This document shows, piece after piece, positions 6,186 to 60,057 of a stretch of DNA of 64,000 nucleotides. The translations under genes and the position numbers were made by a program. The stretch spans positions 64,001 to 128,000 of the IMG/VR virus record IMGVR_UViG_3300036778_000062; one strand, written 5' to 3'. Position 1 is the first letter of the stretch. Every line of letters begins with the position of its first letter. The stretch comes from a virus (Duplodnaviria > Caudoviricetes). The notes beneath the pieces were generated by a model that was given only the letters and a program-made list of their open reading frames with translations, was not told where the DNA came from and searched no databases.

Positions 6186-6249
6186 AGTGCGATTCGTAAT
6201 TGCCTATCCCCGTGCCTATTTGGGCCTGGGGGCCATAGGAAAAATTACC

Positions 6250-6435
6250 ATGTTTAGATTGATTCAGCGCTCCCGGCCGCCCTACGAATTTAGGAAGTCC
6301 CTCTTCAGGGAGCTCGACGAGGCCGTTTGGGCCGCGCGTGAAAGCCATGGCGACTACCTTATCGAGGAAACGTCCGAGACCGGAGCATCTTTGGCGGTCA
6401 AGAAATATCGGCTTGGCAAGTTTGAGATGGGTTGA
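6250..6435 (+). CDS. Small hypothetical protein
   Basis: AGGA RBS before ATG; ORF only. Confidence 0.4.
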   Translation: MFRLIQRSRPPYEFRKSLFRELDEAVWAARESHGDYLIEETSETGASLAVKKYRLGKFEMG

Positions 6436-6506
6436 GTGTCTTGCCGGAGTCAATCGCGCCGATTCAGTTCGCATTCGACGGCATCAGTGAGGCAAAAAGG
6501 ACGAAG

Positions 6507-6773
6507 ATGACATACGACGTTTTTGGTCCATTCCTGCGGGTGGATACGTGGCACACCGATCATCCCGGGGATGAACGATGTTTTTATCGCTGCCTTGCGC
6601 AAGTCGTTGAAGATCCCGACTTCGATCCGCAGGCTATGGGCAATTACATGCGCGCCGCGAAGAAGATTGCGAAAGATGACCATGATCATCATTTTGCGCA
6701 GACAATTCGCGATCTGGTTACAAAGGCCTGTGCCATTCGCGATTTTCTCGAAGTAAAGAAAGAACAGGGGTAA
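6507..6773 (+). CDS. Hypothetical protein
   Basis: AAGGA RBS; FL.VDTWHT.HP.DE..FY motif. Confidence 0.55.
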   Translation: MTYDVFGPFLRVDTWHTDHPGDERCFYRCLAQVVEDPDFDPQAMGNYMRAAKKIAKDDHDHHFAQTIRDLVTKACAIRDFLEVKKEQG

Positions 6774-6786
6774 AATTCGGGTCTTG

Positions 6787-7080
6787 ATGGCGCGCGAGAC
6801 GAGCGGCTGGCAGAAGAAGTTCGCCGCGCCAATTGACGCCGGCGGCAAGTCGCTCCGCACTCTGCGCGATGCAGGCCACTACGTCACGAAGCTCCCGAAG
6901 GCGACCGCCGAACTGCCGCACTGGCAGAACGCCACGAAGTACCTGATCGAAGCGGCCAAACACCCGTTCTTCGTGATGGTTGCCGAGATTGCGATGCGGA
7001 CCGCGCTCAATCACGGCAAGCCGCCGCCGGATCCGGAGCCGCGTCGCAAGAGCACAAAAAAATATCGAGTCATTAGGTAA
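6787..7080 (+). CDS. Small hypothetical protein of a type common in Bradyrhizobium-like genomes
   Basis: W...F..PI.....L.TLRDA..Y..KLP......WQ.A...LI.AA pattern. Confidence 0.65.
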   Translation: MARETSGWQKKFAAPIDAGGKSLRTLRDAGHYVTKLPKATAELPHWQNATKYLIEAAKHPFFVMVAEIAMRTALNHGKPPPDPEPRRKSTKKYRVIR

Positions 7081-7125
7081 AATTGTAGTTGCTCTCGCCT
7101 CTAGGTTGAGGCAACCCTTCGCGCT

Positions 7126-8574: not shown

Positions 8575-8616
8575 AAGAGGAAGCGCCGCTCGAAGGCGCA
8601 AGATCGGAGCTATACT

Positions 8617-8865
8617 TTGGATTTTCATTGGGTGCAGCAGGATGGCGAGTGGCTGCTTAAACCATCCATGATCTCGGTCAGGTCGAACGACAGTTTTTTC
8701 TTCGTGATCCACGTCGGCGATCGTCCCTTGAACGCTCGATACACAAGCGAGCAAGGCGCGAAACTAGATGCGTGGGAGTTCGCCAAGAGCAAGGCACAAG
8801 CGCTGTTCGGCGTCCGGGATATTCGTCTGGTGTCAGAAACGACAAAAAAGCCCCCGGCGCCCTGA
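8617..8865 (+). CDS. Hypothetical protein
   Basis: GGAG RBS before TTG; ends at the terminator. Confidence 0.4.
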   Translation: MDFHWVQQDGEWLLKPSMISVRSNDSFFFVIHVGDRPLNARYTSEQGAKLDAWEFAKSKAQALFGVRDIRLVSETTKKPPAP

Positions 8866-8883
8866 AAGGGGCAACCGGGGGCC
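8844..8883 (-). terminator. Intrinsic terminator ending the late/lysis operon
   Basis: gcccccgg...ccgggggc stem followed by T6 on the minus strand. Confidence 0.75.
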
Positions 8884-8906
8884 TTGAGCGGTCATGGAGC
8901 TCGAGA

Positions 8907-9266
8907 TCAAATATCGGTCTTTGAACTCTTTCGATTGGCGCGCCGTCTTAACAGCGCGGTTATACTGGCAAGCGTCGCAGAGGTCGTGTCCAGTTTGGAG
9001 TTCACCGCAGCGATCGCCGTTTTGATGTTTTCAATATCGAGGTGCATCTCAACCAGGTGCTGGACCAGCCACGGGCTCTCAATCTGAACCGGGACCGGGA
9101 CCGGCGCCGGTTGAGTCACTGGCGATTCCGGCGGCCGCGGCGTCTGACGCCGGATCGCGGCGCCGGCGAGCACCGCCGCGATCACCAGCACCAGGATCGC
9201 GACCGCCCCCTGAACCAGCGGCCACTCGTGAAGAACCTCAAAGGCCTGCTTTATCAAGTCGCCCAT
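8907..9266 (-). CDS. Single-TM, coiled-coil lysis-region protein
   Basis: N-terminal TM, Pro linker, heptad region. Confidence 0.65.
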   Translation of the reverse strand: MGDLIKQAFEVLHEWPLVQGAVAILVLVIAAVLAGAAIRRQTPRPPESPVTQPAPVPVPVQIESPWLVQHLVEMHLDIENIKTAIAAVNSKLDTTSATLASITALLRRRANRKSSKTDI

Positions 9267-9687
9267 AGTCCACCAGCGCGCGGCACATCGCGATCAACTC
9301 GACGATCGTGAGAACGAGATAAACCCAAATGCCGGGCGAAGGTGGATTTCCGGTGTTGCAGTGATAGAGCACGAGTGAGGTGCACATCTGCGCCCACAAT
9401 GAAGCGCCGACAATTGCACCGCACGCGCGGAGCTTTGGGCCATAGATCGGCCATGTACCGTTCGCGACCAGCGCTGCGAACCGCAGGATTCCGCCGATCG
9501 CAAACAGCGGCACCAACCAGACGGGCCCGGTCATCTGGAGCAAGAACCGGAAGATCGATGCTCTGATCGACTCGGGCCATATCGTGATGTGGATGCTAAG
9601 CGCGATCATCATGCCGCTGGTCGCCAGTTCGAAAAGTCGGTTCTCGAAGTGACGCAGCGTGATGTGGATCAGCTTGTCGAGGGTCAT
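9238..9687 (-). CDS. Four-TM membrane protein of the lysis cassette
   Basis: Four hydrophobic helices; position downstream of the endolysin. Confidence 0.7.
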   Translation of the reverse strand: MTLDKLIHITLRHFENRLFELATSGMMIALSIHITIWPESIRASIFRFLLQMTGPVWLVPLFAIGGILRFAALVANGTWPIYGPKLRACGAIVGASLWAQMCTSLVLYHCNTGNPPSPGIWVYLVLTIVELIAMCRALVDYGRLDKAGL

Positions 9688-9723
9688 CGCCAGCGTCTCT
9701 CAGCCGTGATCAGTAGCCCGAAC

Positions 9724-10665
9724 CTATTTAATCGGAGCGAGAATGGCCGCAGCGCCCGCTAGACCAGCGGCTCCTGCTACGCCCGCAACGGCCGGCTGCA
9801 CGGCGCCGTTAACGGTGCCTTGGATCCAGTTCTGGCAGGCAGTCGGACCACCAGCCAGGACGAACTCCCGAAACTTCTGAAACAGTGTAACGAGCCCGGG
9901 ATTGTAGGCAGGGACGGCTGCGACAGCAGAAATCGCCGACGTGGTTGCGGTCGCAGGCTGCTCCGGTACTGCCACGATGGCCGGCTTGGCAATTCCGGCC
10001 TGGATGATCGCCAAGCCCGGCTTGAGACATTGGATCGCCGTCTGATCGCCGCCGCCGTCGAAGGCCTGCGCCGATGCCAGCGCAGTCTCGGTATCAGCAG
10101 CGAGCGTCGAATTCGCGTCTGTGACGCAAGCCTTGATGACCTGCTTAAGATTCTTCGGGTTCAGCAGCAGGAAGATGTTGAAGTCGCACTGGATTGATCC
10201 ATCCTCATTCTTGGTGACGCCGGCTTTGTCCGAGATGCCGAGGTCGGTGCGAATATCCTTGACGATGTTGCCGGTCACTGCCGGCTTCTTGATCTGCGCC
10301 TCGGCATACGCATCGCCGGCGCTGGCGACGAGCACAAACGCCCCCATTACGATCGCGGCGACGACCGCCACGGCCTTGGCCGTGCTCGAGGAGGGGGAAG
10401 GCGCGGGTGTCGTCGGGGTAATAGTCCCGGAAATCAGCGCATCGTCCTTCTTCTCCGAACCCTTGGAGGATCCGAAGAAGAAGGAATAGACGTCTTTGAG
10501 GCATGCGATCAGAACGCCTACGATCGTCATCAGCACGCCGCTTGTCCGCTCATCGATGACGGGCGGGTGCAGGATCAAGATCAGCACGACGACAGCGATC
10601 AACAGGATTATCGCCATCGCAAGGAAGCCCTGGGTATCGGGAAGCCAGAACGGTTTGGGGGTCAC
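9724..10665 (-). CDS. Holin-like N-terminal domain fused to a putative exported Cys-containing domain
   Basis: Two TMs plus YSFFFGSSKGSEKKD motif seen in phage holin-like proteins; third hydrophobic segment ends AYA. Confidence 0.55.
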   Translation of the reverse strand: MTPKPFWLPDTQGFLAMAIILLIAVVVLILILHPPVIDERTSGVLMTIVGVLIACLKDVYSFFFGSSKGSEKKDDALISGTITPTTPAPSPSSSTAKAVAVVAAIVMGAFVLVASAGDAYAEAQIKKPAVTGNIVKDIRTDLGISDKAGVTKNEDGSIQCDFNIFLLLNPKNLKQVIKACVTDANSTLAADTETALASAQAFDGGGDQTAIQCLKPGLAIIQAGIAKPAIVAVPEQPATATTSAISAVAAVPAYNPGLVTLFQKFREFVLAGGPTACQNWIQGTVNGAVQPAVAGVAGAAGLAGAAAILAPIK

Positions 10666-18399: not shown

Positions 18400-19059
18400 T
18401 CAGAGAGGTGTCATGACAGCGACGTCCACGCCGGACGGCCGCGGCAGCACGCCGGACTGTTCGACGATCGCAAGTTCGAGCGGCGATAGGGCGAAATCGA
18501 ATTTTTGGACCATCGTCATATCGCGGTTGTCGACGACGTAGCAGTTGCCGCGTCCCGGAAAGAGGCTGCGCAGGATCTGGTTGATGGACTTGATCGAGCC
18601 GTCCGTGATGTTGAACAGCGCCTTGGCGAAGATCAGGATCCGGTAGGAGCTGTCCGCGAGCACGAAGTTGTTCGTCAGCGGCTGGCCTTGGAAGAACGGC
18701 GCTTGGCCGAACGGTTGCGAACCAGGTTGCGCCTCCTCCATGCCGAGATAGATATCGCTCTCTGGGACGCTGAGTGTGCGCGAGACGTTGACGATATCGC
18801 CCCAGATGTCGAGGCCATAGCCGACTGCGGTTGCAATGTTGAAAATATCGTCAAAGAACGCGGTGATGTTGGATGTCTGGTCGACGCACTGGAAGACGTT
18901 GTAGATTAGCTCGATGATGATCGGGCTGTTTGCGTATTGTGAGATAACCGTCTTCCAGAAGTCGAAATCCGGAATCGGTCCGATCGGCGAGACGCCGATG
19001 ATAAACTTGCCGATCGCATTGGATCCCGGTCGCGGCCGGTTAATATCCGGCCCGCTCAC
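18400..19059 (-). CDS. Baseplate wedge protein (DUF2612-like)
   Basis: SQYANSP, TAVGYGLDIWG.IV.VSR, LPRPSGV. Confidence 0.85.
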   Translation of the reverse strand: MSGPDINRPRPGSNAIGKFIIGVSPIGPIPDFDFWKTVISQYANSPIIIELIYNVFQCVDQTSNITAFFDDIFNIATAVGYGLDIWGDIVNVSRTLSVPESDIYLGMEEAQPGSQPFGQAPFFQGQPLTNNFVLADSSYRILIFAKALFNITDGSIKSINQILRSLFPGRGNCYVVDNRDMTMVQKFDFALSPLELAIVEQSGVLPRPSGVDVAVMTPL

Positions 19060-30215: not shown

Positions 30216-30607
30216 CAGGTGATCGCGTCAGCGAGGCTCTTGGGCTGCTCCTTCGGGGCTTCTTGCTGCGGCGGCCCCTTCGGCTCTTCCTTCGTCTTTG
30301 CGGCCTCGGCAGCCGCCGCTGCGGCTGCGGCGTCGGCCGCGTCGGACTCCGCCTTCTTCTTGGCCTGCATCCATTCGATGACCGGAGCGAGGTCTCTGCG
30401 GATCATCTCGATATCGCCGGCCAGGGCCTCGACATTCAGTACTGCCCGACGCGTATCGGCGATCGCTTCCTCGAACTGAGGAATGAAGGACATCAGCCGT
30501 CGGATGTCGGACTCAGACAACTGCGGAACGTTGTCGAGCCGCTTCAGGGCCTCCTCGACCATAGCCTTCGATTTCCAGAGGGCATTGACTTTGGCGTCCA
30601 AATCCAT
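30215..30607 (-). CDS. Coiled-coil hypothetical protein
   Basis: GGAG RBS; coupled to the next gene. Confidence 0.55.
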   Translation of the reverse strand: MDLDAKVNALWKSKAMVEEALKRLDNVPQLSESDIRRLMSFIPQFEEAIADTRRAVLNVEALAGDIEMIRRDLAPVIEWMQAKKKAESDAADAAAAAAAAEAAKTKEEPKGPPQQEAPKEQPKSLADAIT

Positions 30608-36298: not shown

Positions 36299-37096
36299 CT
36301 ATAAGAAGCCCGGGATCACCGGGCGCGCGATACATCGGCAATTGATCAACTCGCCGGGCAGAACGTGCTTGTCGACCGCGGGATCGAACCAGCCTTTGGA
36401 AAGCTGGAATTTCTCCTTGTTGCGACCGGCGGCAACGTGTGTGGGTCGCGGATGCTTGCCGCCACCGCTGTGAACCCAGATAGCCTCTGTGATGCCGGCC
36501 TGCACCTGGCGCGCGCGGGTCATCACCGCGGTCGCCTTGTTGTTCTGGTCTCGCGCGATAGTCGTCGCGCGCCGCTTCGTCACTCCGAACTGTTCTTGCA
36601 GGGCCTTGGTGAGCTGGCCGAGATCGCGCCCGGTCTGCACCGAACGCATCACCATGCCCTCGACCTGGATCAGATACTGCTGCGGGATCGACTTGATGAG
36701 GGATACCTGCTCATTGATCGTTGCGTCGATGACGTCGCGCATCGCCGGCGTCATGTTGAATTTGACGGTGAAGCCGCCATCGCGAAGGATCTTCTTCAGA
36801 GCCGCATCGCTGCGCGCATGAACTGTAGTCGCAAAATATTCCGCGAGCTTGGGTGCGGCTCGATCGAAATTCCGCTTCCATCGACGCGCCAGTTGGCGAA
36901 CCGCTAGCCGCAACTCTTCGGCCGGATTTCGGTCCTGGGCCATGATCGGCGGGTTCTGCCGATATGCCGCCTTGAGCCAGTAGACGAACGAGGCGTTCAT
37001 CTCCTCAATCAGCTCGATGAGCTTCCGACGGTATGCCGACTCGATACCGGCGTTCGGGTGAACCGGCCGCAGCGTCTTTGCTTTCGGCCGCTTCAC
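36299..37096 (-). CDS. Head morphogenesis protein (MuF/SPP1 gp7 family), short form
   Basis: RA..IARDQ..K, W.HS.....RP.H, PG..INCRC. Confidence 0.92.
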   Translation of the reverse strand: MKRPKAKTLRPVHPNAGIESAYRRKLIELIEEMNASFVYWLKAAYRQNPPIMAQDRNPAEELRLAVRQLARRWKRNFDRAAPKLAEYFATTVHARSDAALKKILRDGGFTVKFNMTPAMRDVIDATINEQVSLIKSIPQQYLIQVEGMVMRSVQTGRDLGQLTKALQEQFGVTKRRATTIARDQNNKATAVMTRARQVQAGITEAIWVHSGGGKHPRPTHVAAGRNKEKFQLSKGWFDPAVDKHVLPGELINCRCIARPVIPGFL

Positions 37097-39741
37097 TTCA
37101 ATCGCCCGAACGCGCTGTCCGTCAGCGACTTGTCCGAAGCCCCGCCGCCCGGCCGCTTGACGCCGTTGCGTTTCAAGAAGTCATTGAGCTGCTTTGCTCC
37201 GGTTGGCGAAGCGGAGGCGATGCGAACATCTTCCAGCTCGTTGGGCACCACGACCTCGCCGGCCGAGTTGAACTTCGGCTTCCAGCCGCCAGCAAGCGCC
37301 TTTTCGAAAGCAGTCTCGCGTTCGTTGGATCGAGCCCGCTGCTTTTCACGTTCAGCCCGCCTTTGGGCATCCTGTTCGGCCTTGCGCTCGGTGGCCGACA
37401 TCTTGCCCCACCGGCTCATTTCCGTGGCGAATTCCTGCTCCTCTTCACCGACCTCATCGTGTTCGCGCGCCATGATTTGGTCCATCTCAGCGATGGCGCT
37501 TTCGGAGCCTGATTTCAACTCGATCACCGCGGACTGCAGTCTGTCCAGGGCCTCCTGCACGTCGTCCTCATCGGCGTCCGGATCGTCAAGGTGATCCCGC
37601 AGGTTCTCAGTCGCATCGTCCACTTCAGACGCCAGTCCTTCGAGGTGGTCCGCCAGGTTCGCCATCTTCGCGGCGCCGATGTGCGTCACCGTCTGCGATT
37701 TCTGTCCCGCTTCGATAGGGGCGGCTCCCAGCAGATCGGCCGCTCGATTGTGCATGTCTTGCGCCGCTTTTCGCAAAGCGTCGGCTGCCGCCGGCGCTTC
37801 ACCGATCGCATCGCGGAAATCCGACTCTGCTGTGAACTCTTCACCATCCTCCAGCTCGGCACGATCCTCCGGCGTGATATCCATGATGTCGTCAGCGGCA
37901 GTCCCGATCTGCTCTCGAACCGATTCCAGATTGTCGCGAGCCTCGGATATCCCTTTCGATGCTTCACCGAACTTAGCTGCGCGAGCCTTGCTCGCCGCTT
38001 TTTCGGCGCCACCGCCGCCAGCTTCCCAGCGGCCGGAGTCATCGCGAGGATGATCAGCTTCGGTGAAATCTTCGTCGGAGGCTAAGCTGCTCGACGGCTC
38101 TCCGCGCGCCGCGCCGCCCTTAGGCTCGAGACCTTCGTCCTCTTCCTCTTTCAGGTCGGGCATGTCCTCGGTATTGAGGCCCGGATAGAGCGTGTCCGGC
38201 GCGTTGGCGACGCGCTTGCGCTCTTCTTCGGGTGAGATGACACCGCTGTCGATCTGGATCTGCGCCGTCTCCGAGTTGACTTTGCGGACGTCTGCCTGCC
38301 CCTTTTCGTCCAGCTCCCACAGAGGCTCGTAAGTGTAGAAAAGATCAGGATCGACGCGCCCCCAGATATTGATTTGTGCGAACCGGAATACGCGGTCGAG
38401 GTTTGGCGAAAAGAACTGTTCCTGTTTCGCATGGATGTGGTCGTAGAACGCGCGCAGCTCAGGCTCTGCTGTCGCGTTCAAGCCGTGTGGCGAGATGCCG
38501 AGCAGCTTGACCAATGGGATACGTGATACCGATGCTTGATGCTCCTGCGCCTGGGCCTGCAGCATATCCAACGACGCGAGCGACGTGGATACGTTCTGGA
38601 ATTCCTCCGATTCCGCGTCGATGACCATCACACCGCGGTTGTCGCGAGTGTTGTTGAATAGGTCTACGCGTTTGAAGAGCTGATCGCCGCCAGGCGTCAG
38701 CGTCTCGCCCATGTTGGTCGATAGCACGAAGACCGAGAAGGCCTGCACGATGTCGGCAACACTCTGCCGAATGTTCAGGAAGTTCTCGACGTACGGCTTC
38801 GCCATCTGCGTCAACGACAAGCCGCCGAACGAGTAGGCGGGTTTGAGCGCGTCAGGGACCGGTCGACCGACGAACTTCAGCAGCCTCGATACGTGGACTT
38901 CCCGGTCCATCACGAACCACGACTGCGGATTATACCAATCCGGCCGAAGCGGATTGTTCGAGTTGTAGCTCGTCGGGTACGTCCACATCGGTTCGACGAC
39001 GGCTAACCGCTTCAGGTCTCCTCGTCCGAACTTCTGTTCCGTGACGCCGTTCTTGCCGTTGCCGATCGGCATCTTCAGCTCGTTCCAATCGTCGGTGTCC
39101 CCGGTATCGAGATAGAGATGCGCACGGCCAAAGAACCCATCGACCTCGCAAGATTGGCAGAAGGTCTCACGAACCTTCAGACGCTCGAACTCTTCGTTGA
39201 GTTGCGCGATCTTCTTCGTTTTGTCCTTGTCGCCCTTCGCCTGGATGCGGATCCACTTGCGAGTCATCTCGGTCGCGATCGTCTCGACCATGACGCGATA
39301 TTCTGGACGCTGCGCGAGCTCGGCGAGGTACTGATAGCCGAGGAACGCGATACCCTCGAAAGCGGCGTGGGAGCCCAGGGCATTCCAGGCACCGCCCGCC
39401 CAAGCCGAGATACCCGTTATCGCCTCGTCAGACGCCATCCTCCGATCGACGGGGATGTTGTCCATAAGCTGGACCGGGAAGTCAGGCAGCTTGAACGGGT
39501 TGACGCGGGTGTAGCGTTCGGCCTTCTGCCTCGACCGTTGGAGAACGTCGTCCGAAACGACGATCGGTTTCCGCTCGGCGCGATCGGCCGCTACCTTGAT
39601 CTCCTCCGGCTGCAGCGTCTTCTTGGCGATCTTCCTTGCGACCCTACGCGTCGGTGCGCGGCGCGCGCGTGCGGGCTTCTGCAGCTCTATGAACTCCAGC
39701 ACCATCTGCCGGGCGAGCTGTTTGACGTCCTTCTTCTTCAC
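37093..39741 (-). CDS. Portal protein (DUF1073-like) with a ~325-aa C-terminal extension
   Basis: TRKWI, FFGRA, VH.SRL, G.SL.Q, IPL.KLLG.SP.GLNAT.E, PLW.L, GVI.PEE.R; extension follows. Confidence 0.9.
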   Translation of the reverse strand: MKKKDVKQLARQMVLEFIELQKPARARRAPTRRVARKIAKKTLQPEEIKVAADRAERKPIVVSDDVLQRSRQKAERYTRVNPFKLPDFPVQLMDNIPVDRRMASDEAITGISAWAGGAWNALGSHAAFEGIAFLGYQYLAELAQRPEYRVMVETIATEMTRKWIRIQAKGDKDKTKKIAQLNEEFERLKVRETFCQSCEVDGFFGRAHLYLDTGDTDDWNELKMPIGNGKNGVTEQKFGRGDLKRLAVVEPMWTYPTSYNSNNPLRPDWYNPQSWFVMDREVHVSRLLKFVGRPVPDALKPAYSFGGLSLTQMAKPYVENFLNIRQSVADIVQAFSVFVLSTNMGETLTPGGDQLFKRVDLFNNTRDNRGVMVIDAESEEFQNVSTSLASLDMLQAQAQEHQASVSRIPLVKLLGISPHGLNATAEPELRAFYDHIHAKQEQFFSPNLDRVFRFAQINIWGRVDPDLFYTYEPLWELDEKGQADVRKVNSETAQIQIDSGVISPEEERKRVANAPDTLYPGLNTEDMPDLKEEEDEGLEPKGGAARGEPSSSLASDEDFTEADHPRDDSGRWEAGGGGAEKAASKARAAKFGEASKGISEARDNLESVREQIGTAADDIMDITPEDRAELEDGEEFTAESDFRDAIGEAPAAADALRKAAQDMHNRAADLLGAAPIEAGQKSQTVTHIGAAKMANLADHLEGLASEVDDATENLRDHLDDPDADEDDVQEALDRLQSAVIELKSGSESAIAEMDQIMAREHDEVGEEEQEFATEMSRWGKMSATERKAEQDAQRRAEREKQRARSNERETAFEKALAGGWKPKFNSAGEVVVPNELEDVRIASASPTGAKQLNDFLKRNGVKRPGGGASDKSLTDSAFGRLK

Positions 39742-41171
39742 GCGAGCGGCTTCCGTCGTCGGACCGGGATGGCTGACTTCGCGAGGACCTCGTCAGAAAT
39801 GATGAGCGGCGCGCGCGCGACAAACGCGAGATAGTCCAAAGCCCACACGAGCGCATCCATCCGATCGGGCGAACCTTCGAGCGCATAGCCGTCGCGGGTC
39901 ATTGCGCACATCTGGTCCTCGAGCTCAATGAAGTCGCCGATATGAGAAATCTTGTTCTGCTCGTACAGAGCTGCGATCGGCTCGGCTCTCACGACCTTGC
40001 CGCGCGATGCGACGACTTCCTCATAGGGCACGCTTCTGTCGATCGTCCGGATGACGTGCTCGACCATGGCGCCGCCGTAGTTACGTTCGGCGACAATTCG
40101 ATCAGCCTTGAATTCGTGATAGGCGGCAACCGCTCGCCGTCCCCAGCCATCCGGCGAGAGCTTGCAACTGCGATCCGCCAGGACGTAGCCGCGACCGTCT
40201 ATACCCTTGCCGGCAACGATGATGCCGATCTCGTCGCCGTCGTCCTCGTCGCCGCCGGTGCCCGACGGGTCCACTGATACGACGATGCGCCGAAGGTCCG
40301 GAATCGTGACCGGCTTCCGAGCCTCATCGATCATGAGGCGCGTCCAGAGCGCGCCTGGCACGTCGTCGAGGATCTCGGCGTTCAGCTCCTGCCGGCCGAG
40401 CCGCGTCCCGCCATACCGATCCACGATCGACTGGATGAACGACGGCGGCAGGTTCGAGGCATTCGCCAGCGTGCTCCCGCTGGTGATACGGGTGAGCGCA
40501 TCCTTGATCAGATATCGGATCAGCGGAATGGGGCGCGGCGTGGTGGTGATGCAGGCTCGCGGATGCAATCCAAGCCGCAGGCCGAATTGTAGTTGGTCCC
40601 AGGTGTCTTGCGCATAGCGCCACTTCGCCAGCTCATCGCACCACGCCGCATCATGTTGCGGGCCGCGGAGCTGGTCCGGCTCAGTTGCGTTGTACAGCGT
40701 GGCGATCGCACCATTGGGCCATGTGAGGCGGCGTTTGGACGGCTCGTAGTCCGGCCGGAAATCTTTCGGGTGAACCTGTAGAAGGCCAGAGCCTTCGTCT
40801 TCGGCTTTGCCGTCACCGACCATCACTTCGCGCGCATCGGCAGCAGTTTCCGCGATCAGCGCTAGCTGGCGATATCGACCGCGGCCGAGGGGCGTCGAAC
40901 CGCAAACGTTGTCGCGAACCCACTCGGCGCCAGTGCGTGTTTTGCCGAAGCCGCGGCCGGCCATGAGCAGCCAGTATTTCCAGGCCGGATCGGCGGGCTC
41001 GATCTGGTCGGGGCGGGCCCAGAACTTCCAGTCCCAGCGAAGCGCCTCGAGCTGGCCGTCAGTCAGACCCGCCAGTATCTCCGCCCGTTCGCTTTCGGGC
41101 AGCGATGCTAGCAATTCGGCTTGCGATGAGTTCACGAGGACTGACGTTCTTGGTTTCGATGGGGCCGCCAC
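39738..41171 (-). CDS. terL: Terminase large subunit (start codon uncertain)
   Basis: Walker A AGRGFGKT, LRGPQ, Walker B AWCDE, TTTP, nuclease VDP, SPDRMDA. Confidence 0.95.
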   Translation of the reverse strand: MAAPSKPRTSVLVNSSQAELLASLPESERAEILAGLTDGQLEALRWDWKFWARPDQIEPADPAWKYWLLMAGRGFGKTRTGAEWVRDNVCGSTPLGRGRYRQLALIAETAADAREVMVGDGKAEDEGSGLLQVHPKDFRPDYEPSKRRLTWPNGAIATLYNATEPDQLRGPQHDAAWCDELAKWRYAQDTWDQLQFGLRLGLHPRACITTTPRPIPLIRYLIKDALTRITSGSTLANASNLPPSFIQSIVDRYGGTRLGRQELNAEILDDVPGALWTRLMIDEARKPVTIPDLRRIVVSVDPSGTGGDEDDGDEIGIIVAGKGIDGRGYVLADRSCKLSPDGWGRRAVAAYHEFKADRIVAERNYGGAMVEHVIRTIDRSVPYEEVVASRGKVVRAEPIAALYEQNKISHIGDFIELEDQMCAMTRDGYALEGSPDRMDALVWALDYLAFVARAPLIISDEVLAKSAIPVRRRKPLA

Positions 41172-44058: not shown

Positions 44059-44277
44059 ATGACGAAAGATGATGCGCGCCGACAGATACTCGCCGAATGG
44101 CGAACATGGGCACCGAACCACGCCAGAGCCGCGCCAAAACCCAACGGCATGGATGGCTTGATGTTCTTCGCCGACCTGCAGCGGACGAACAGCCACCTCC
44201 TAAATTTTAAAGATCGCGGCGACAAGTGGCAGACAGTGCACGGATGGCTGCTACGAGATGGACTGGTTTCCGATTAA
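44059..44277 (+). CDS. Small hypothetical protein (antisense moron)
   Basis: FF..LQ.....LL.F...GDKWQTVHGWL. Confidence 0.6.
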   Translation: MTKDDARRQILAEWRTWAPNHARAAPKPNGMDGLMFFADLQRTNSHLLNFKDRGDKWQTVHGWLLRDGLVSD

Positions 44278-44876
44278 CCGATGTTGATCGTGCCTTGCTC
44301 GACTGTGACGCCGGCGAAAGGCTTCATGGCCTGTTCGAGTGCGCGCAGCGCGTTGGCCTGCTGCGCGAGCGGACCCCGTATCGAAATCCAGAACTCGTCT
44401 TCCACGGCGCCGGTCTCGATCTCTTTGACTTCGAGATCGTCAGGCTCGTCCAGGAGCTTCTTGAGCTCGCCCTGCGAGAAGCCGAGAGACAGTGCGTTCT
44501 CGCCATCATCCTGCAGCTCGAGGATCACATCGCGCAGGATGTCGTCATCCCAGCGGGAGTTCTCCGGAATCCGGTTGAGCGCGATGGCGAGCGCCTTGTA
44601 GCCGGCTTCCGAGAGGCCGGCGACGACGCGGCATTCGGCCTCAACACGGCCGAGGCGTTTCAGGGCTTCAAGTCGGCCTTCGCCGCCGACCAGGACTCCA
44701 GTCGGGCGGATGACGAGCTTGTCGATATAGCCGAAGCGTTCGATCGATTGCGCGATCTGCGCAATCTGCGATTCCGAGTGCCGGCGCGCATTCTTCGGAT
44801 CTGGCTTGATGTCGGCCAGCTTGCGCACTTCGTCGGTGATGACGGGCTCACCGGCGGCTTTGGGCTGTTTCGCCAT
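44274..44876 (-). CDS. ParB/Srx N-terminal domain protein (terminase-linked type)
   Basis: P.PKNARRH...QI.QIA.SI.RFG, GEGRL.A, A.NRI.E.S.WD; no HTH evident. Confidence 0.85.
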   Translation of the reverse strand: MAKQPKAAGEPVITDEVRKLADIKPDPKNARRHSESQIAQIAQSIERFGYIDKLVIRPTGVLVGGEGRLEALKRLGRVEAECRVVAGLSEAGYKALAIALNRIPENSRWDDDILRDVILELQDDGENALSLGFSQGELKKLLDEPDDLEVKEIETGAVEDEFWISIRGPLAQQANALRALEQAMKPFAGVTVEQGTINIG

Positions 44877-45067
44877 CAGCTCGTTCCGACCTTCTTCAAA
44901 CGGAAATTGTGCACCCACGTTTCCTTCAGCTCGGCGTCCTTCCACCAGGAAACGAGGATCTGTAGGCCATGCGGATAGACCGCGAACCCGACGACCGTCG
45001 CCGTGATGTCGCCGCCGTCGATCTGCACTTTGTCGCCAAAACCAAATTCTGAATTGTACTGCGGCAC
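44876..45067 (-). CDS. Small YodC/DUF2158-like protein
   Basis: F.FGDKVQI...ATV....VSWW...W; AGGAG RBS before GTG. Confidence 0.55.
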   Translation of the reverse strand: MPQYNSEFGFGDKVQIDGGDITATVVGFAVYPHGLQILVSWWKDAELKETWVHNFRLKKVGTS

Positions 45068-46321: not shown

Positions 46322-46655
46322 CGGGACGAATGGGACAAATGGGACAAGACGCGAGCGCCGACAGGCGCGCGAGCGTTTCGCTGCCGTGTCACATCGCAGC
46401 ACCGAATCAGGATGTTCTTTGTTGAGGAGAGATCAGTGAGGGACGGGTCGCTCTTGCCGCTTGTCAGCGGCTTCGCGCCCCTCAGGACGCAGTTTGCCCA
46501 TCACGTCTGCGCGCGATGGAGGCCGCGAAATTTTCGGCATGTCAAGGGACAAATGGGACAAAGAGCCGGAGACCGGTCCTAACGCAATGATGTTACGAGT
46601 GAAAAAAATTTGCTGAGACATTTGGGACATTGCGGGACATTTGCGAAATGTCTCA
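46322..46655. repeat. GGGACA iteron-like array I
   Basis: gggacgaa-tgggacaaa-tgggacaa (46323-46348), gggacaaa-tgggacaaa (46546-46562), tgagacatt-tgggacatt-gcgggacatt plus inverted aaatgtctca (46614-46655). Confidence 0.8.
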
Positions 46656-47160: not shown

Positions 47161-47691
47161 CTAACCTGGCCTGACATTCTGCGCGGCGAGGATGACGAGA
47201 CCGCGCGTGAAATTCGCGAGGTGAGCAGAGTAGGGGATTGCCTTCTCACCGCGTTGGGCCTGGCGCTGGCGATAGAGTTTGTACTCGGCGTTGACCTGTT
47301 TCAGCTCGCCCTTGCGCCGCGCCTCTTCGACATCGCGCGTAATCCGGGCGACGGCATTTTGTGCATCCCGTGAGACCTCATTTGCAGATCGAAACGAGGC
47401 GCCGAGATAGCCGGCGACGTTCGCCAGCGTGTCGCGGACTTCTCGCCCCGGCATATCGATCCAGCCTTCCGGCCGGGTCGCGCCGATCGCTTCCAGATCA
47501 GTGAGGGTATGGCTCAGAACAAGTTCGGCGTGCTGCGGTTTGGCGAACCAAAGCGCATCGACCAGCACGACGTTTTTTTCCTGATCGGTCGAGATTTTCG
47601 AGGGCTGCTTGCCGTCAACCGCAAAGACCATCAGCGCGCGGATTTCGAGCGCGGCGAGGTAGGCCTGAACGAGGGAATCGCGGGTACTCAC
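47161..47691 (-). CDS. Hypothetical protein divergent from the early accessory operon
   Basis: 176-aa ORF with high-GC coding pattern; G.LK.VN.EYK.YR. Confidence 0.65.
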   Translation of the reverse strand: MSTRDSLVQAYLAALEIRALMVFAVDGKQPSKISTDQEKNVVLVDALWFAKPQHAELVLSHTLTDLEAIGATRPEGWIDMPGREVRDTLANVAGYLGASFRSANEVSRDAQNAVARITRDVEEARRKGELKQVNAEYKLYRQRQAQRGEKAIPYSAHLANFTRGLVILAAQNVRPG

Positions 47692-47732
47692 AGCGGGATT
47701 TAGCTACCCGATCAGCAATTTAGGCCGGATTA

Positions 47733-47745
47733 ACAGCTATTCTGT
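47733..47745. promoter_or_regulatory. Repressor operator ACAG-N5-CTGT
   Basis: ACAGctattCTGT matches the four sites flanking cI. Confidence 0.7.
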
Positions 47746-47758
47746 TTCACGTGAAACC
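47743..47758. promoter_or_regulatory. parS: Chromosomal-type parS site
   Basis: TGTTTCACGTGAAACC, 15/16 to consensus TGTTTCACGTGAAACA; perfect 14-bp palindrome. Confidence 0.75.
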
Positions 47759-47830
47759 GGGAAAAGGAGCCAAATTAGGCGTATTTTTGCCTATCCATTT
47801 GATTTTAGGAGATATTTCGCGTCAAAAGAC

Positions 47831-47859
47831 TTTACAGAAACTCTGTTACTTGGCATAAC
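47831..47859 (+). promoter_or_regulatory. Early promoter TTTACA-N17-CATAAC with operator ACAG-N5-CTGT at 47834-47846
   Basis: Same architecture as the promoter at 60029-60057. Confidence 0.7.
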
Positions 47860-47909
47860 GATCTCACTGCAACGGGGCACCGCCCCACGTCCACAACGGA
47901 GAATGTGAA

Positions 47910-48146
47910 ATGGCCTTCGCTTTTGATACCCTCGGTTACTCGAAGCACCTGCAGGGTGCAGGCGTCACGGCAAAGGAAGCCGATGCGCATGCGGAAGCCG
48001 CCCGGAATTTCATCATGAACGAGCTCGTCACCAAGTCTGACCTCGCGCTGGCACTCGAAAACGTCACCTCGGCACTGACCATCCGCCTCGGCGGTATGAT
48101 CGCGGCCGGTATCGCGGCGCTCGCCGTCCTTCAGCGCTTCCACTGA
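47910..48146 (+). CDS. DUF1640/CCDC90-like small protein
   Basis: FDTL.Y.K.L..AG....A.A, LVTKSDL, C-terminal hydrophobic helix. Confidence 0.8.
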   Translation: MAFAFDTLGYSKHLQGAGVTAKEADAHAEAARNFIMNELVTKSDLALALENVTSALTIRLGGMIAAGIAALAVLQRFH

Positions 48147-48227
48147 TCAACGACCGGCGCGGCCTTCGGGTCGCGCCACCTATCCACGGGGCAACGCCCC
48201 ACCATCGCACAAGGGAGAACGTGCAAA

Positions 48228-49316
48228 ATGTCTACCACCCTCACGCAAGCCAACGCCCAATGGTCCCGCCGCCCGGCCGATGAACGGTTTTCGTCGATCG
48301 AGGCTATGGACCGCGCCGCGCGCGCCTTCAAAACCTCGGCCATTGTCGAAGAGATCAAGACCAACGCGCTCCGCATCGCGGCGCAGGGCAATGACCTGGT
48401 GCTCGAAACCCCGAAGGGCGCGCCCGCACTCCTGACCAACTGGTCTTTCAGCCAGATCGCAAGCCGCGCCTCCGCGCCGGCGGCATATCTGAAAGACCTT
48501 CCGGCCTCGCTCGCGGCCGACTGTCTCAACCACGGGCTCAAGCAAGCCGGAGACGACGAGAAGGGCGCGCAGCTGCTGCTTGGCAATGCCGGCAAGGCCG
48601 TGGCGCCGATCGCACGGGCTATCACCTCCGACAAGTACAGCCGCATTTGGAATGCGGACATCACGTCGCGCTTGCTCGAGCTGGAAGCCCGCGGCCCTTG
48701 GCAACCGGCGCCGGCGGCCTTCGATGGCTCGCGCGGCCTCTATCTCGGCGACCGCGATATGTTTGCGTTCCTTGTCGACAACGAACGCCGCATTTTCGAG
48801 ACCGGTCCCGGCGGTGGTCTGTCCCGTGGCTTCTTCGTTTCCAACTCCGAGGTCGGTGACGCTTCATTCCAGATCATGACGTTCTTTTACGAGTACGTAT
48901 GCGGCAACCATCGGGTTTGGGGCGCGCAGGGTATCGCCGAAGCCAAGGTCATCCACATCGGCAACGATCAGTCGTCGAAGGCTTTCGACATCATGGCGGT
49001 CGAGGTCAAGAAATATGCCGAGGCCTCGGCGAAGGACGACGAGCAGATGGTCGAGCGCTGCCGGCGCTACGTCATCGCCGCCAAGAAGGAAGACGTCCTT
49101 GATGCCATCTTCAAGTTGAAGGTGTCGGGCCTCGGCAAGACCGTCGCGGGCAAGGCGTACGATCTCGCCGCGCAGCGCGAAGACTGGTACGGCGCGCCGA
49201 ACACGGCTTGGGGTTATGCCGGCGGCCTGACCGAGATCGCCCGCGATCTGCCGAACGCCTCCGACCGTCACGCGCTCGACTGCGCGGCCACCAAGATCAT
49301 GGAAATGGCTGCCTGA
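48228..49316 (+). CDS. DUF932-like protein
   Basis: WSFSQ.A....PA.Y, S.KY.RI.N, RGFFVSNSEVG, VCGN, H.G, W..AGG.TE.A. Confidence 0.75.
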   Translation: MSTTLTQANAQWSRRPADERFSSIEAMDRAARAFKTSAIVEEIKTNALRIAAQGNDLVLETPKGAPALLTNWSFSQIASRASAPAAYLKDLPASLAADCLNHGLKQAGDDEKGAQLLLGNAGKAVAPIARAITSDKYSRIWNADITSRLLELEARGPWQPAPAAFDGSRGLYLGDRDMFAFLVDNERRIFETGPGGGLSRGFFVSNSEVGDASFQIMTFFYEYVCGNHRVWGAQGIAEAKVIHIGNDQSSKAFDIMAVEVKKYAEASAKDDEQMVERCRRYVIAAKKEDVLDAIFKLKVSGLGKTVAGKAYDLAAQREDWYGAPNTAWGYAGGLTEIARDLPNASDRHALDCAATKIMEMAA

Positions 49317-49388
49317 TCAATCCGGAGCGGCAGCGACGCCGCTCCCTTTCACCTTGGGGCATCGCCCCGCCTTATCGAGGATCATACG

Positions 49389-50049: not shown

Positions 50050-50339
50050 CATCGCTCGATCGTATCCTTAGCACGCGGCTTCGCCCCGAGAGGCGAGGCG
50101 GCAACGCCGCGGTGAAGGTGGCGGCCGACGGCTATCATGTCGCAACGGTCAGTCCCGGTATGAACGACGCCGGCGACTACGCTCGGCTTTTCGCTGCATC
50201 GCCTGATCTTCTGATCGCCCTGAAAAATCTGCGCGCAGAGATCGAGGCGATTTCCGGCTATTGGACCGAAGGTCTCGATAACTTCGCAATGCAGGCAGAC
50301 GCGGCGATCGCGAAGGCGGAGCGCGGCGATGTCCGTTAA
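50046..50339 (+). CDS. Phage hypothetical protein
   Basis: ARL.AASPDLL.AL...A.AAIAKA motif common in phage early proteins. Confidence 0.65.
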   Translation: MTSLDRILSTRLRPERRGGNAAVKVAADGYHVATVSPGMNDAGDYARLFAASPDLLIALKNLRAEIEAISGYWTEGLDNFAMQADAAIAKAERGDVR

Positions 50340-51132
50340 GCGCTCCGATATCCTGTTGAACACGGTCGCGCATCGGGAGGCGCGCGACCAATTCATCCAC
50401 CACCTGAACGAGGCCTGCCGCCGTGAGGGCTGGAGACCTTACGAGGCTCTCGGCAATTGGCTCGATGCGGCCTTCCGTTCCATGCGCAGCGCGACGTTGC
50501 AATTCCGTCCGGAGGATCTCGCGAAGAACGAGGCCGAATACGCGCGCATCGTCAAGCGCTGCCGCTATCCGCAGGAGACGGTGGGCGACCTGGCCAAGAT
50601 GCTGGGGGCGTGCGTACTCGCGCTCGAGGCGGCTCCGGTAGATTTCATCGGACCGATTTTCGGTGAGGTCGCGGCCAGCTCACAGCTCGGACAATTCTTC
50701 ACGCCCTGGCATCTTTCGAGGGTGATCGCGGAATTGATAATCGAAGACCCGCGACAGATGCTCCAGAAGAGCGGGCGCAAATTCCTGTTGCTGCAGGAGC
50801 CGGCATGTGGTGTCGGCGGGATGACCTTAGCCGCATGCGAGGTGCTTCGTGAGAAGGGTTTCGATCTTGCTCGGCAAGTCCACTGGTCGATGGTCGACAT
50901 CGACTATCAGGCGCATTGCGCGGCGTACATCCAGATCAATCTCTGCGGCATCTCTGCCAGCGTCTTCCACGGAAACACGCTATCGCTGCAAACCTGGCTG
51001 GCGACGCCGACGCTCTCAGCGGTCGTGTTTGCGAAACGGCTGACAGGTCAGCCGCAACATGAGCCGCCGACGCCGGTGCCGAGCACCACCGAGGAACCGG
51101 CGCAGCTCTCGCTTTTCTTGGAGGCCCCATGA
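50329..51132 (+). CDS. N6-adenine methyltransferase-like protein (HsdM-like N-terminal half, no NPPF motif)
   Basis: GQFFTP, EPACG.GGM, VDID, GNTL; ends before any NPPY/F. Confidence 0.75.
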   Translation: MSVKRSDILLNTVAHREARDQFIHHLNEACRREGWRPYEALGNWLDAAFRSMRSATLQFRPEDLAKNEAEYARIVKRCRYPQETVGDLAKMLGACVLALEAAPVDFIGPIFGEVAASSQLGQFFTPWHLSRVIAELIIEDPRQMLQKSGRKFLLLQEPACGVGGMTLAACEVLREKGFDLARQVHWSMVDIDYQAHCAAYIQINLCGISASVFHGNTLSLQTWLATPTLSAVVFAKRLTGQPQHEPPTPVPSTTEEPAQLSLFLEAP

Positions 51133-53063: not shown

Positions 53064-53682
53064 CGACCTTCAGGCCCTCCTGCCACTGACGATTGAACAG
53101 CTTGTGGTCGAGGCCTCGGCGCTGGCAGCTCCGGCGGATGTCGGCACGGATTACCGCCCATAGCGCGCGGAGGCTGATCGCCTTCGCCAAGTCGGGTCGA
53201 TCGGCGAGATATTCCATCGGCCATGCCAGGGCCTGGTCCATGCGGGTGATCTGCGCGGTGGTTGGCGCCAGACGAACGCGGTTGCGATCTTCCTCGAAGC
53301 TTTCGCCGGCTTCAGCCATCTCCAGAAGGTCTTTGAGCGCGGGGCGCTCTTGAACCGGGGTCGGCATGGCATTGCCGTACTGTTTTGGCCGCGTCCGTGC
53401 GGGCAGCGCCAGCAGAACCTCGTATGCCTCTTCCAAGCGGTCCAGGACGTGCACCATCGTCCAGGTCGACGGCACCTCCCGAACACTACTGCGACGACCG
53501 GCAGGCGCCTCCATGCGCCCCACAACGCCCAGCAAATGGCCTCGCAGGCCGTCATCTCCGTCCAGCTCGATCAGGGCGGCGAGTCGGGCGCGCTTGGTCA
53601 GGGACATTTCGGACAATTCGGGGAATGTCCCGTTTGTCCCTTTTGTCCCTGGGTGCCGCGATTTCTTTGATTTTTCAGCCAT
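53023..53682 (-). CDS. DUF6362-like protein, candidate late-gene regulator (Q position); start uncertain
   Basis: WT...V.DRLEEA..VL..LP, R..PT..QITRMDQALAW, C-terminal HTH-like region. Confidence 0.6.
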   Translation of the reverse strand: MAEKSKKSRHPGTKGTNGTFPELSEMSLTKRARLAALIELDGDDGLRGHLLGVVGRMEAPAGRRSSVREVPSTWTMVHVLDRLEEAYEVLLALPARTRPKQYGNAMPTPVQERPALKDLLEMAEAGESFEEDRNRVRLAPTTAQITRMDQALAWPMEYLADRPDLAKAISLRALWAVIRADIRRSCQRRGLDHKLFNRQWQEGLKVVTATLTARRVTVN

Positions 53683-53738
53683 TTCTCGACTTCGCGTCAG
53701 GGACAATCTCTGGGACATTTGGGACAAACGGGACAAAA
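53600..53738. repeat. GGGACA iteron-like array II (direct and inverted), candidate replication origin
   Basis: gggacattt-cggacaatt, inverted tgtccc x3 (53626-53649), AT-rich ttctttgatttttc, then gggacaatc..tgggacatt-tgggacaaa-cgggacaaa; directly downstream of the helicase gene. Confidence 0.8.
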
Positions 53739-57479: not shown

Positions 57480-58025
57480 TCAGTCGCCTGCCGCTCGCTC
57501 GGCGCTCCGCTGGAAGGCCTTCGGATTGCGGATCGCGGTTGGATCGACGCCGCGCCGGTGATGAAAGGGGCAATAGGGCCGGTGCTCGAAGAGGTTCGCC
57601 GTCGGTTCGCCGCAAAAAATCTCGGCCGGCAATAGCGTAGGGCCGAGCGGCCAGCGGCAGGTTTCGTTCGTCAGCTCGAGGAGGGCGACGCCTTTACAGT
57701 CGGCATCATCGGTCAAGACATCCGCGAGTCCTGGATCGCTCCCGTTCTTGATCGACTGAAGCCGTGTGATGTTGTGGGTAGTGGGCTTTTTCCGCAAATC
57801 GCCTTTCGCGATCTTGGCGGCAGTCTTGCCGTTCTTAATTCGCTCGCCGCCGCTCCCGACATCCTTTCGGCTGGCCAGGTTCAGTCGATGGGCCTTTCCC
57901 ACGACGGCGTTGCGTGTTGCGCCTCGGATGCAGCTTGCGATTTCACTCGCTGGCGCGCCAGCCGCATACATTCGCTTCAGCGTCTCGGTGTTCTCATCGT
58001 TCCAATCGACCGCTTGAATGGTCAT
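57480..58025 (-). CDS. gcrA: Phage-encoded GcrA-like cell-cycle regulator
   Basis: W.DE....LK.....G..ASEIA....TRNAVVGKAHRL; LLEL....CRWPLG, FCG, PYC..H. Confidence 0.9.
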   Translation of the reverse strand: MTIQAVDWNDENTETLKRMYAAGAPASEIASCIRGATRNAVVGKAHRLNLASRKDVGSGGERIKNGKTAAKIAKGDLRKKPTTHNITRLQSIKNGSDPGLADVLTDDADCKGVALLELTNETCRWPLGPTLLPAEIFCGEPTANLFEHRPYCPFHHRRGVDPTAIRNPKAFQRSAERAAGD

Positions 58026-58666: not shown

Positions 58667-58890
58667 GCCGCGGCCTCTTCCTGGTGCATCATCATCAGGG
58701 AATCGGAGTTCACACCCTCGATTCCCTTTTCGGCTGCCGCGGCAATGATCTTGGGCCAGTAGCGAGGCCGGATTGAACCGGTCCGTTTCATCTCGCTGGC
58801 TGTACTGGGGATTTTCTCGATGACCTTGGCGAAATCGGTTGGTCCGCCGAAGGCATCAATCAATTCAGAAATGGTTCTGGGTCCGGCCAT
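58663..58890 (-). CDS. cro: Cro-like regulator
   Basis: LIDAFGG.T.FA......STAS.MK..GSI...YW; divergent from cI. Confidence 0.8.
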   Translation of the reverse strand: MAGPRTISELIDAFGGPTDFAKVIEKIPSTASEMKRTGSIRPRYWPKIIAAAAEKGIEGVNSDSLMMMHQEEAAA

Positions 58891-58896
58891 GAGCCG

Positions 58897-58938
58897 CATT
58901 TACAGAACATCTGTTAATTCTGTCAACAGGATTTCTGT
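58897..58938. promoter_or_regulatory. OR-like region: operators ACAG-N5-CTGT (58902-58914, 58926-58938) and leftward TTGACA promoter
   Basis: Palindromes in the cro/cI intergenic region. Confidence 0.8.
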
Positions 58939-58963
58939 GTCTGAGGCGTGGCAGCGTCAAAAC

Positions 58964-59710
58964 ATGGATGAAAGCAATACTCGCCTCAGGCAGGCCCGCA
59001 TCAAAGCCGGGTTCAGATCCGCCCGTGCTGCTGCGCTCCGGCACAACTGGGTAGTGTCAACCTATGCCAGTCACGAGAACGGGCAGACACCTGTACCGAA
59101 GGAGACAGCCGACCAGTACGCAAAGGCGTTCAAGGTGTCGCGTGCTTGGCTACTCGCCGTCGATGGTTCGGTTAACCAGGCGCGAAAGAAGGAGCAATCC
59201 CGCGTTGCAACGTCTATTGGCGACGATGGCGGCTTGGAGTTGTATCCTCATACCGAGGTCCCAGAGATCGACGTACTAGCGGGTGCAGGATATGCCGGCG
59301 GATTCAATCAAGAAGAAAATACAATCGACCAATTTGGCAATCATGTCTCCAGGGACGCCATTCGAGCTAGTTGGGGAATCCCTGAGCCCTTTCTGACAAA
59401 CGAGCTCCATATCCGGCCGGGTAGGGCTCACATCCTTCCTGTTCGGGGCGACTCGATGACAGATGCCCTTTTCGATGGAGACAGGGCAATCATCAATCTC
59501 GACGACGTCGATATCAGCCAGGGCGGCATCTTTGCTCTGCTCGACGACAACGCCTCGTTGATCATCAAGCAGGTCGAGTTCGTGCGCGGCACGAAAGCGA
59601 AGAGGATCCGCTGTACGTCGCGCAACTCGTCATACGAACCATTCGAATTGGATTTGGAAGAACCTGTTCGGATTATCGGGCGGGTGGCCAGCAAGATCAC
59701 GAGGCTCTGA
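58964..59710 (+). CDS. cI: CI-like repressor (XRE HTH plus S24 autopeptidase)
   Basis: RL.QAR..AG...STY.SHENG; AG cleavage-type site, VRGDSM, IK, S.N..Y, IIGRV. Confidence 0.93.
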   Translation: MDESNTRLRQARIKAGFRSARAAALRHNWVVSTYASHENGQTPVPKETADQYAKAFKVSRAWLLAVDGSVNQARKKEQSRVATSIGDDGGLELYPHTEVPEIDVLAGAGYAGGFNQEENTIDQFGNHVSRDAIRASWGIPEPFLTNELHIRPGRAHILPVRGDSMTDALFDGDRAIINLDDVDISQGGIFALLDDNASLIIKQVEFVRGTKAKRIRCTSRNSSYEPFELDLEEPVRIIGRVASKITRL

Positions 59711-60016: not shown

Positions 60017-60057
60017 ACAGAAACACTGTTGACAGTAATTCTGTTAATAGCTACAAC
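60017..60057 (+). promoter_or_regulatory. OL/PL-like region: operators at 60017-60029 and 60032-60044; TTGACA-N17-TACAAC
   Basis: Two ACAG-N5-CTGT palindromes over a consensus -35. Confidence 0.85.

Follow-up and report, generated by a model that had tools for sequence, protein, structure and literature searches.

A conserved parS-type site in a divergent control region of temperate Hyphomicrobiales phages and its association with a phage-encoded orphan ParB

What does a single copy of a bacterial centromere sequence do in the middle of a phage genome, and which protein reads it? We ask this for a 16-bp site in a 64-kb stretch of DNA (hereafter the window, positions 64001–128000 of a 140,645-bp IMG/VR record), which an initial annotation had taken for a host-type parS overlapping a repressor operator, and by which the phage would hijack or titrate host ParB. 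Judged by sequence comparison, the site is a genuine and selected parS-type element of a clade of roughly 60–72-kb temperate phages of Hyphomicrobiales, and it appears to be coupled to an orphan ParB that is encoded by the phages themselves. The site and the genes around it are as follows.

47743–47758, no strand assigned: parS-like 16-mer TGTTTCACGTGAAACC with one mismatch to the consensus (15/16) and a perfect palindrome of 14 bp, the sole such site in the record.
47161–47691, minus strand: orf176, a conserved 176-aa protein of no family, with its start codon 51 bp from the parS-like site.
44274–44945, minus strand: stand-alone ParB_N-only protein of 223 aa without HTH, in the late operon (phrog_620, E 4e-41).
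39738–41171, minus strand: large terminase, left of the parS-like site.
37093–39741, minus strand: portal, left of the parS-like site.
47873–47886, plus strand: leader hairpin CGGGGCACCGCCCC before orf78, with more copies at 48187–48200 and 49355–49368.
47910–48146, plus strand: orf78 (78 aa), a rightward accessory-early gene.
48228–49316, plus strand: DUF932-like gene, rightward accessory-early (phrog_1362).

The 16-mer differs from the parS consensus TGTTTCACGTGAAACA in its last base only, and GTTTCACGTGAAAC at 47744–47757 forms the perfect palindrome. Across 47729–47761 the sequence reads ATTAACAGCTATTCTGTTTCACGTGAAACCGGG, in which the TGT of the parS-like site (47743–47745) doubles as the last three bases of ACAGCTATTCTGT (47733–47745). 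The palindrome and the 3 bp that it shares with a site of the form ACAG-N5-CTGT, the two observations from which the initial annotation set out, are thus both present. No other match to parS is found in the window at up to three mismatches (0.09 expected from shuffles), nor in the whole record at up to two. At the base composition of the window, 2.6e-4 sites with at most one mismatch are expected per 64 kb, which agrees with the earlier assertion that such a site is improbable by chance. We also considered the palindrome as a transcription terminator and ruled this out, since it lacks a T-run and the terminator calls did not include it.

The parS-like site sits within a 218-bp divergent spacer, with orf176 to its left on the minus strand and orf78 to its right on the plus strand. 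The orf176 gene is the first of the minus-strand genes towards the ParB_N-only gene, the terminase and the portal; the ParB_N-only protein was discounted as a reader of parS, being without an HTH. To the right, the DUF932-like gene is followed by small ORFs and a methyltransferase-like gene (50329–51132), all on the plus strand. A consensus promoter scan of 47500–48300 returned no sigma-70-type promoter, and promoter positions were for this reason taken from alignment alone. In a five-phage alignment of the spacer, the leader hairpin is invariant, and one ACAG-N5-CTGT copy of the window's phage (the right operator below) aligns with a CTTGCGG...TATAAT promoter block of the relatives. The hairpin, of the form CGGGGC-ANC-GCCCC, precedes three consecutive early genes, with CAAC before it and an RBS and start about 20 nt after it, and may be an RNA-level expression or processing signal.

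Two further observations concern the surrounding regions. Of the 26 copies of the hexamer GGGACA in the window, 14 fall in two short arrays (46332–46639 and 53601–53735), often with a spacing of 9 bp, the first close to the start of the late region and the second just past a DnaB-like helicase gene; the arrays look like iterons or regulator-binding arrays bracketing the accessory operon. A homologue of the cell-cycle regulator GcrA (57480–58025, minus strand; Pfam GcrA, E 2.5e-25) is encoded in the same early region as the methyltransferase-like gene.

Gene-by-gene comparison with three related records places the phage proper at about 74.6–136.2 kb of the record, that is, from 10.6 kb of the window to past the window's end. 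Record positions 1–74,000 (window 1–10,600 and the DNA upstream of it) are other, partly phage-like DNA. As only about 62–66 kb of the 140.6-kb record is collinear with related phages of 69–72 kb, the record probably represents two adjacent elements, or a phage with flanking DNA. A search of the record for a tyrosine integrase gave no match. Integration is seen in the relatives: G001, G004 and G006 are listed as proviruses in IMG/VR, and Bradyrhizobium sp. CCBAU 51753 has a relative of the phage ParB described below at 4.06 Mb on its chromosome of 9.12 Mb, with genes of the host at a distance of 5 kb. A role of the site in partition, in the sense of plasmid maintenance, is unlikely for this reason.

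The motif that overlaps the parS-like site belongs to a set of predicted operators, which is listed here together with the repressor gene.

47733–47745, no strand assigned: left ACAG-N5-CTGT operator, overlapping the parS-like site by 3 bp on its orf176-facing side.
47834–47846, no strand assigned: right ACAG-N5-CTGT operator, over the -35 and spacer of the probable rightward orf78–DUF932 promoter.
58820–59710, plus strand: cI-like repressor gene with HTH_31 and Peptidase_S24 domains.
58902–58914 and 58926–58938, no strand assigned: two ACAG-N5-CTGT operators between a cro-like minus-strand gene and cI.
60017–60029 and 60032–60044, no strand assigned: two ACAG-N5-CTGT operators at the head of a long rightward operon.

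The window holds six copies of ACAG-N5-CTGT against 0.52 expected, a count reached in none of 100 shuffles, and the copies, starting at 47733, 47834, 58902, 58926, 60017 and 60032, form three pairs. The last four flank the gene with HTH and Peptidase_S24 domains, the true start of which is probably the ATG at 58964. In motif and position the set has the layout of lambda-type CI operators, with palindromes flanking the repressor gene and lying at promoters. The proposal that the parS-like site overlaps a repressor-operator motif is well supported by these counts.

The initial annotation had made its reading depend on conservation of the site in homologous phages, and this conservation is found. 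A parS-like site lies 37–61 bp upstream of an orf176 homologue in nine lineages, in which the identity of orf176 ranges from 27 to 65%, and the spacers around it are diverged except for the rightward promoter block and the leader hairpin. The site is a perfect parS in G001, has one mismatch in G011, G013, G023 and G024, and two in G002, G004, G006 and a prophage of Bradyrhizobium LjRoot220; contigs L415, L418 and L420, together with the Bradyrhizobium sp. LjRoot220 prophage, have it at the same place with 1–3 mismatches. L421, with a distant relative of orf176, has no parS-like site. Among the listed site-bearing phages with a full-length ParB relative there is exactly one parS-like site per record, and a reversed control pattern gave no match in 50 records. 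GTTTCAC/GTGAAAC is, moreover, the only palindrome with 7-bp arms common to five of seven phage genomes, which leaves no other conserved candidate for a ParB site.

Five of these phages (G011, G013, G023, G024 and G002) have the site without an adjoining orf176 homologue. It lies between structural genes in G023 and G002, in a different intergenic spacer in G011, and over the start of a lipoprotein gene in G024 and G013. That distant ParB-encoding phages hold the site in other contexts argues for a function in cis that is independent of context. In the two lipoprotein cases (L188 1495–1560 for G024, L189 1460–1520 for G013) the parS-like site overlaps the Shine-Dalgarno region and the GTG start (GTG AAA CA...) of a small lipoprotein gene, and ParB bound there would occupy the translation start region.

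A search of the whole record uncovered a ParB gene in the phage itself, 22 kb to the right of the parS-like site and 5.8 kb past the window's end.

Record 133763–135493 (L005 7763–9493), plus strand: HTH-bearing ParB gene, with ParB_N and HTH_ParB domains.

The statement that neither ParA nor an HTH-bearing ParB is visible in the window thus stands as far as ParA is concerned, and for ParB it is true of the window and false for the phage. The open frame is of 576 aa (P0001), and the protein probably starts at the second Met and has 545 aa (P0002). In addition to ParB_N it matches Pfam HTH_ParB (E 5.5e-10), and it matches Thermus Spo0J with a phmmer E of 2e-18. The AF2 model has a pLDDT of 84, and its first 200 residues match ParB, Noc and KorB (Foldseek E 1e-8 to 1e-6); as modelled, these residues form a bona fide ParB, with N-domain, HTH and clamp fold. 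In the nucleotide pocket, GGKRLAA (GxxRxxA) and N..R are conserved across the family, and L or T takes the place of the Glu of ENxxR where sampled, a pattern that suggests nucleotide binding with altered or lost hydrolysis. The ParB part (residues 1–220) is followed by an extra C-terminal region of about 330 aa, modelled over residues 225–510, in which a linker joins an alpha/beta domain to a helical region; neither Pfam nor the PDB has a match to it.

A ParA partner is not apparent. A search of the whole record with PF13614 (AAA_31) found nothing, and all 25 members of the phage ParB family lack the ParA-binding motif (L/F/I)G(K/R)G(L/F/I), as defined at the ParB N-terminus (PMC12704722). The phage ParB gene lies in an uninterrupted plus-strand operon that starts after the operators at 60017–60044 and runs out of the window, and from this position we infer that it is CI-repressed in the lysogen and made only after loss of CI.

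Presence of the site goes together with presence of this ParB. With completeness set at ≥90% and sites counted at ≤2 mismatches, six of nine complete records that encode the ParB have the site against one of eight terminase relatives without it (Fisher p = 0.036, and p = 0.020 once incomplete records are added), modest statistics in which shared ancestry confounds and the control phages are without host assignment. The one ParB-less record with a site has it at two mismatches, and six of nine would arise under random sequence with a probability of about 1e-11. The complete ParB-encoding records without the site are G015, G027 and G082, the first two of which were also checked at three mismatches. 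Mesorhizobium phage Cp1R7A-A1 has a DUF932 gene and neither this ParB nor the site. When the recognition helices of 22 ParB relatives were grouped by presence of the site, no distinguishing residues emerged. We consider the association of site and ParB suggestive, short of decisive.

We favor the explanation that the site is a selected parS-type element at which the phage's own orphan ParB loads, and would give it an even chance of being correct. The parS would then lie in a divergent control region between the late genes, headed by orf176, and the CI-repressed accessory-early operon. Once CI is lost, phage ParB would be made from the operon behind 60017–60044, and its clamp would load at the single parS and slide into the flanking late and early genes, where it would have a regulatory or organising effect on phage DNA, as is the case for BisD and KorB on their elements. 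Host ParB would also bind the site whenever it is free, and in the lineage of the window's phage the overlapping CI operator would hinder this binding in the lysogen.

Alternatively, host ParB could be the sole reader of the site, with phage DNA being handled by host ParA/SMC, or host ParB being soaked up by it. Lytic replication would then disturb segregation and division, and the long ParB of the phage would have some other target. Such a hijack is what the initial annotation had in mind; since the phage has a ParB of its own, it is no longer the only reading, or the simplest one, and we think it somewhat unlikely, if the main rival of the explanation that we favor. The identical 16-mer TGTTTCACGTGAAACC occurs in the native parS cluster of Aminobacter ciceronei, and its core in the 4–5 clustered parS sites of the same consensus found in Bradyrhizobium, Devosia and Afipia genomes. 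By its sequence the site is accordingly, as had been claimed, a host-type parS of the likely host group (Hyphomicrobiales), and its identity with a host centromere sequence implies that it can be bound by host ParB as well whenever it is free.

The residues with which ParB contacts DNA also speak for a host reader. In Caulobacter ParB, parS is contacted by Q162, G170, K171, S172, R173, N178, G201 and R204, and two of these, R173 and G201, are reported not to vary among true ParB orthologues (PMC7383237). Aligned with Spo0J, the phage ParB keeps only the equivalents of G170 and R204; the other six are P, L, K, K, Q and K, and those of R173 and G201 are both Lys. Its recognition helix, K-x-V-x-Q-x-L-A-L-G, is conserved in the family and unlike the canonical R-S-x-V-A-N-x-L-R-L-L. 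With six of eight parS-contact residues changed, binding of the phage ParB to the 16-mer is not to be assumed. There is also a precedent in phi29, the five host-type parS sites of which are used via host Spo0J (PMC2731898). In Caulobacter, an extra parS in mid-arm lowers fitness and a plasmid with a strong parS is lethal (PMC5815017), and a free host-type parS on a prophage or a replicating phage should therefore matter to the host, which many phage copies could perturb. If host ParB were the only reader, however, it would be difficult to see why the site is enriched in phages with the long ParB and rare in terminase relatives without it. In addition, one half-site is degenerate in G002, G004, G006 and L418, which would weaken binding of host ParB, and as a sink one site would count for little beside the 4–5 clustered native sites.

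A CI-gated centromere is a further proposal of the initial annotation: CI bound at 47733–47745 would mask parS, and its cleavage would expose the site, by which the phage would recruit or titrate ParB and SMC. As the explanation of the site we find this doubtful, and as an extra layer in the lineage of the window's phage it is possible. The operator motif that overlaps parS by 3 bp is a real one, the overlap and both ACAG operators are retained in G003/L012, which is of the same immunity type and has the site TGTTTCACGTGAAACG, and an ectopic parS that is left unmasked can carry a cost for an alphaproteobacterium. In G004 and the Bradyrhizobium LjRoot220 prophage, TTAACCGCA touches parS on the same side; it is half of GGTTA-N2-TAACC, an operator-like palindrome of these two phages themselves, and the operator is present there as a half-site only. 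On the other hand, in G001, G006, L415 and L420 the parS is retained in the same position and no operator can be recognised over it. The search for parS beside operators in relatives, which had been put forward as a check, thus recovered the parS and, outside the window's phage, the operator overlap in G003 only. Two ways of finding operators that overlap parS in the relatives, enrichment of inverted 4–5-mers and k-mers common to the parS and immunity regions, were both too noisy; what the operator search did yield was limited to TAACCGCA / GGTTA-N2-TAACC, a motif of G004 and G054, and beside parS these two have no more than half of their own operator.

The left operator may also be present simply to repress the orf176 promoter, as this promoter must lie within or beside the same 50 bp. 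A role in segregation is unsupported, there being no ParA, integrated relatives and one site only. Masking of parS by CI is sterically plausible in the window's phage, and it would be specific to this lineage and no conserved design of the clade. With respect to the relatives, GGTTA-N2-TAACC marks a second immunity type, in which it lies between cI and cro and also covers the -10 of the promoter for the accessory operon, an arrangement that parallels the ACAG-N5-CTGT layout of the window's phage. It is seen in the following regions.

L422 (Bradyrhizobium sp. LjRoot220) 3100–3330: GGTTA-N2-TAACC evidence region.
G004 30290–30400 and 18966–18979: GGTTA-N2-TAACC evidence regions.

It is very unlikely, in our view, that the palindrome is the operator of another phage regulator, for instance in autoregulation of orf176, and resembles parS incidentally. 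The fixed spacing of 37–61 bp upstream of orf176 in the nine lineages would fit such a role, and orf176 is a protein without known function: it has no Pfam, PHROG or NCBIfam family match and no Foldseek PDB match. The AF2 model (me629d0771a97, pLDDT 91) consists of an alpha/beta N-terminal part and long helices, and the C-terminal helices have a weak likeness to sigma region 2; many VIA-align hits, at Z values of 5–6, are to this region of ECF sigma factors, and no hit to it or to other helical proteins is above 6.2, which is within noise. A possible role of orf176 in transcription of the late genes behind it is on this model a weak lead. Against an operator of this kind, identity with parS over 14–16 bp is far beyond chance, the same sequence is found in the five phages without an adjacent orf176 homologue, and neither an HTH nor any other DNA-binding fold is seen in the confident model of orf176. 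A chance occurrence without function can be considered effectively refuted by the conservation of the site in its position across many diverged relatives, and by the small number of sites expected per window, even though isolated matches to the exact 14-mer do arise in collections as large as IMG/VR, where among the matches listed (mostly short, unrelated contigs) none of 19 long contigs encodes an HTH ParB.

Both host-type parS sites on phages (phi29, PMC2731898) and orphan ParB clamps with loading sites (BisD) were known before. As far as our searches show, there is no prior description in the literature searched in which a phage ParB is combined with the parS of its host at a junction under repressor control. 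Orphan CTP clamps of the ParB fold are frequent on mobile elements, and very few (BisD, KorB, VirB) have a known DNA target or role; the ParB family of the Hyphomicrobiales phages now has a single, precisely located candidate site. As this candidate is the host centromere sequence, and misplaced or plasmid-borne parS is known to be harmful in Alphaproteobacteria, the question arises of cross-talk between prophage and host ParABS/SMC. In a phage of root-nodule-type bacteria, the conserved site would be a real phage-host interface and not a chance match, in a system as compact as one site, one protein and one overlapping repressor operator. The complete combination, in which a phage family loads a ParA-less ParB clamp at the host centromere sequence under the control of a prophage repressor, we consider more doubtful still than CI gating as such. 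If it holds, induction would turn a CI-covered site into a point of competition between phage and host ParB, and control of the late genes would be coupled to interference with host segregation and division.

Four known systems bear comparison with the arrangement that we favor, the loading of the phage's orphan ParB at its single parS. The chromosomal parS/ParB of the Caulobacter type (PMC7383237, PMC5815017) has the same 16-bp site, with the consensus given above, and the phage ParB shares with its ParB the N-domain, the HTH fold and the GxxR and NxxR motifs. Instead of an origin-proximal cluster next to parAB, however, the phage record has a single site, with no ParA (PF13614) and no ParA-binding peptide, and the phage ParB is without R173, G201 and four more of the contact residues and has the extra C-terminal region of 330 aa. 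In the Bacillus phages phi29 and Nf, host-type parS is bound by host Spo0J and exploited by the phage (PMC2731898). Here too a phage genome carries binding sites for the chromosomal ParB of its host, as predicted for the window's phage; phi29 is, however, lytic and infects Firmicutes, and its five sites serve in spore entrapment without a phage-encoded ParB, whereas ours is temperate and alphaproteobacterial, with one site and its own ParB.

KorB of RK2, for which OB is the loading site and KorA provides the lock at promoters, is the repressor counterpart of BisD (PMC11790492). The likeness lies in a ParB-fold clamp at a palindrome near promoters with a second repressor close by, in the phage the CI operator that overlaps the site, and KorB structures 8qa8 and 8qa9 are among the Foldseek matches of the phage ParB. 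KorB differs in having 12 OB sites, an IncC (ParA) partner and a short C-terminal domain, and in the phage nothing indicates a contact between CI and ParB. BisD of ICEclc in Pseudomonas putida is a 550-aa ParB-like CTP clamp with an activation domain, which loads at two bisS sites, slides about 50 kb and switches on promoters (PMC12409273). Both BisD and the phage protein are orphan ParB-like proteins of about 550 aa with a C-terminal region, encoded on an integrated element without ParA, the clamp being predicted in the case of the phage; both have one or two loading sites in a regulatory region of the element, and for both, expression is expected only upon activation of the element. The matches of the phage ParB to ICE-type relatives of Beta- and Gammaproteobacteria cover only residues 1–280, the likeness of the C-terminal regions being one of architecture, and the Glu of ENxxR is L or T in the phage protein. 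The main difference lies in the DNA: bisS is a private 23-bp palindrome unlike host parS, and BisD, KorB and VirB all use private sites of this sort, whereas the candidate site of the phage ParB is identical to the parS of the host.
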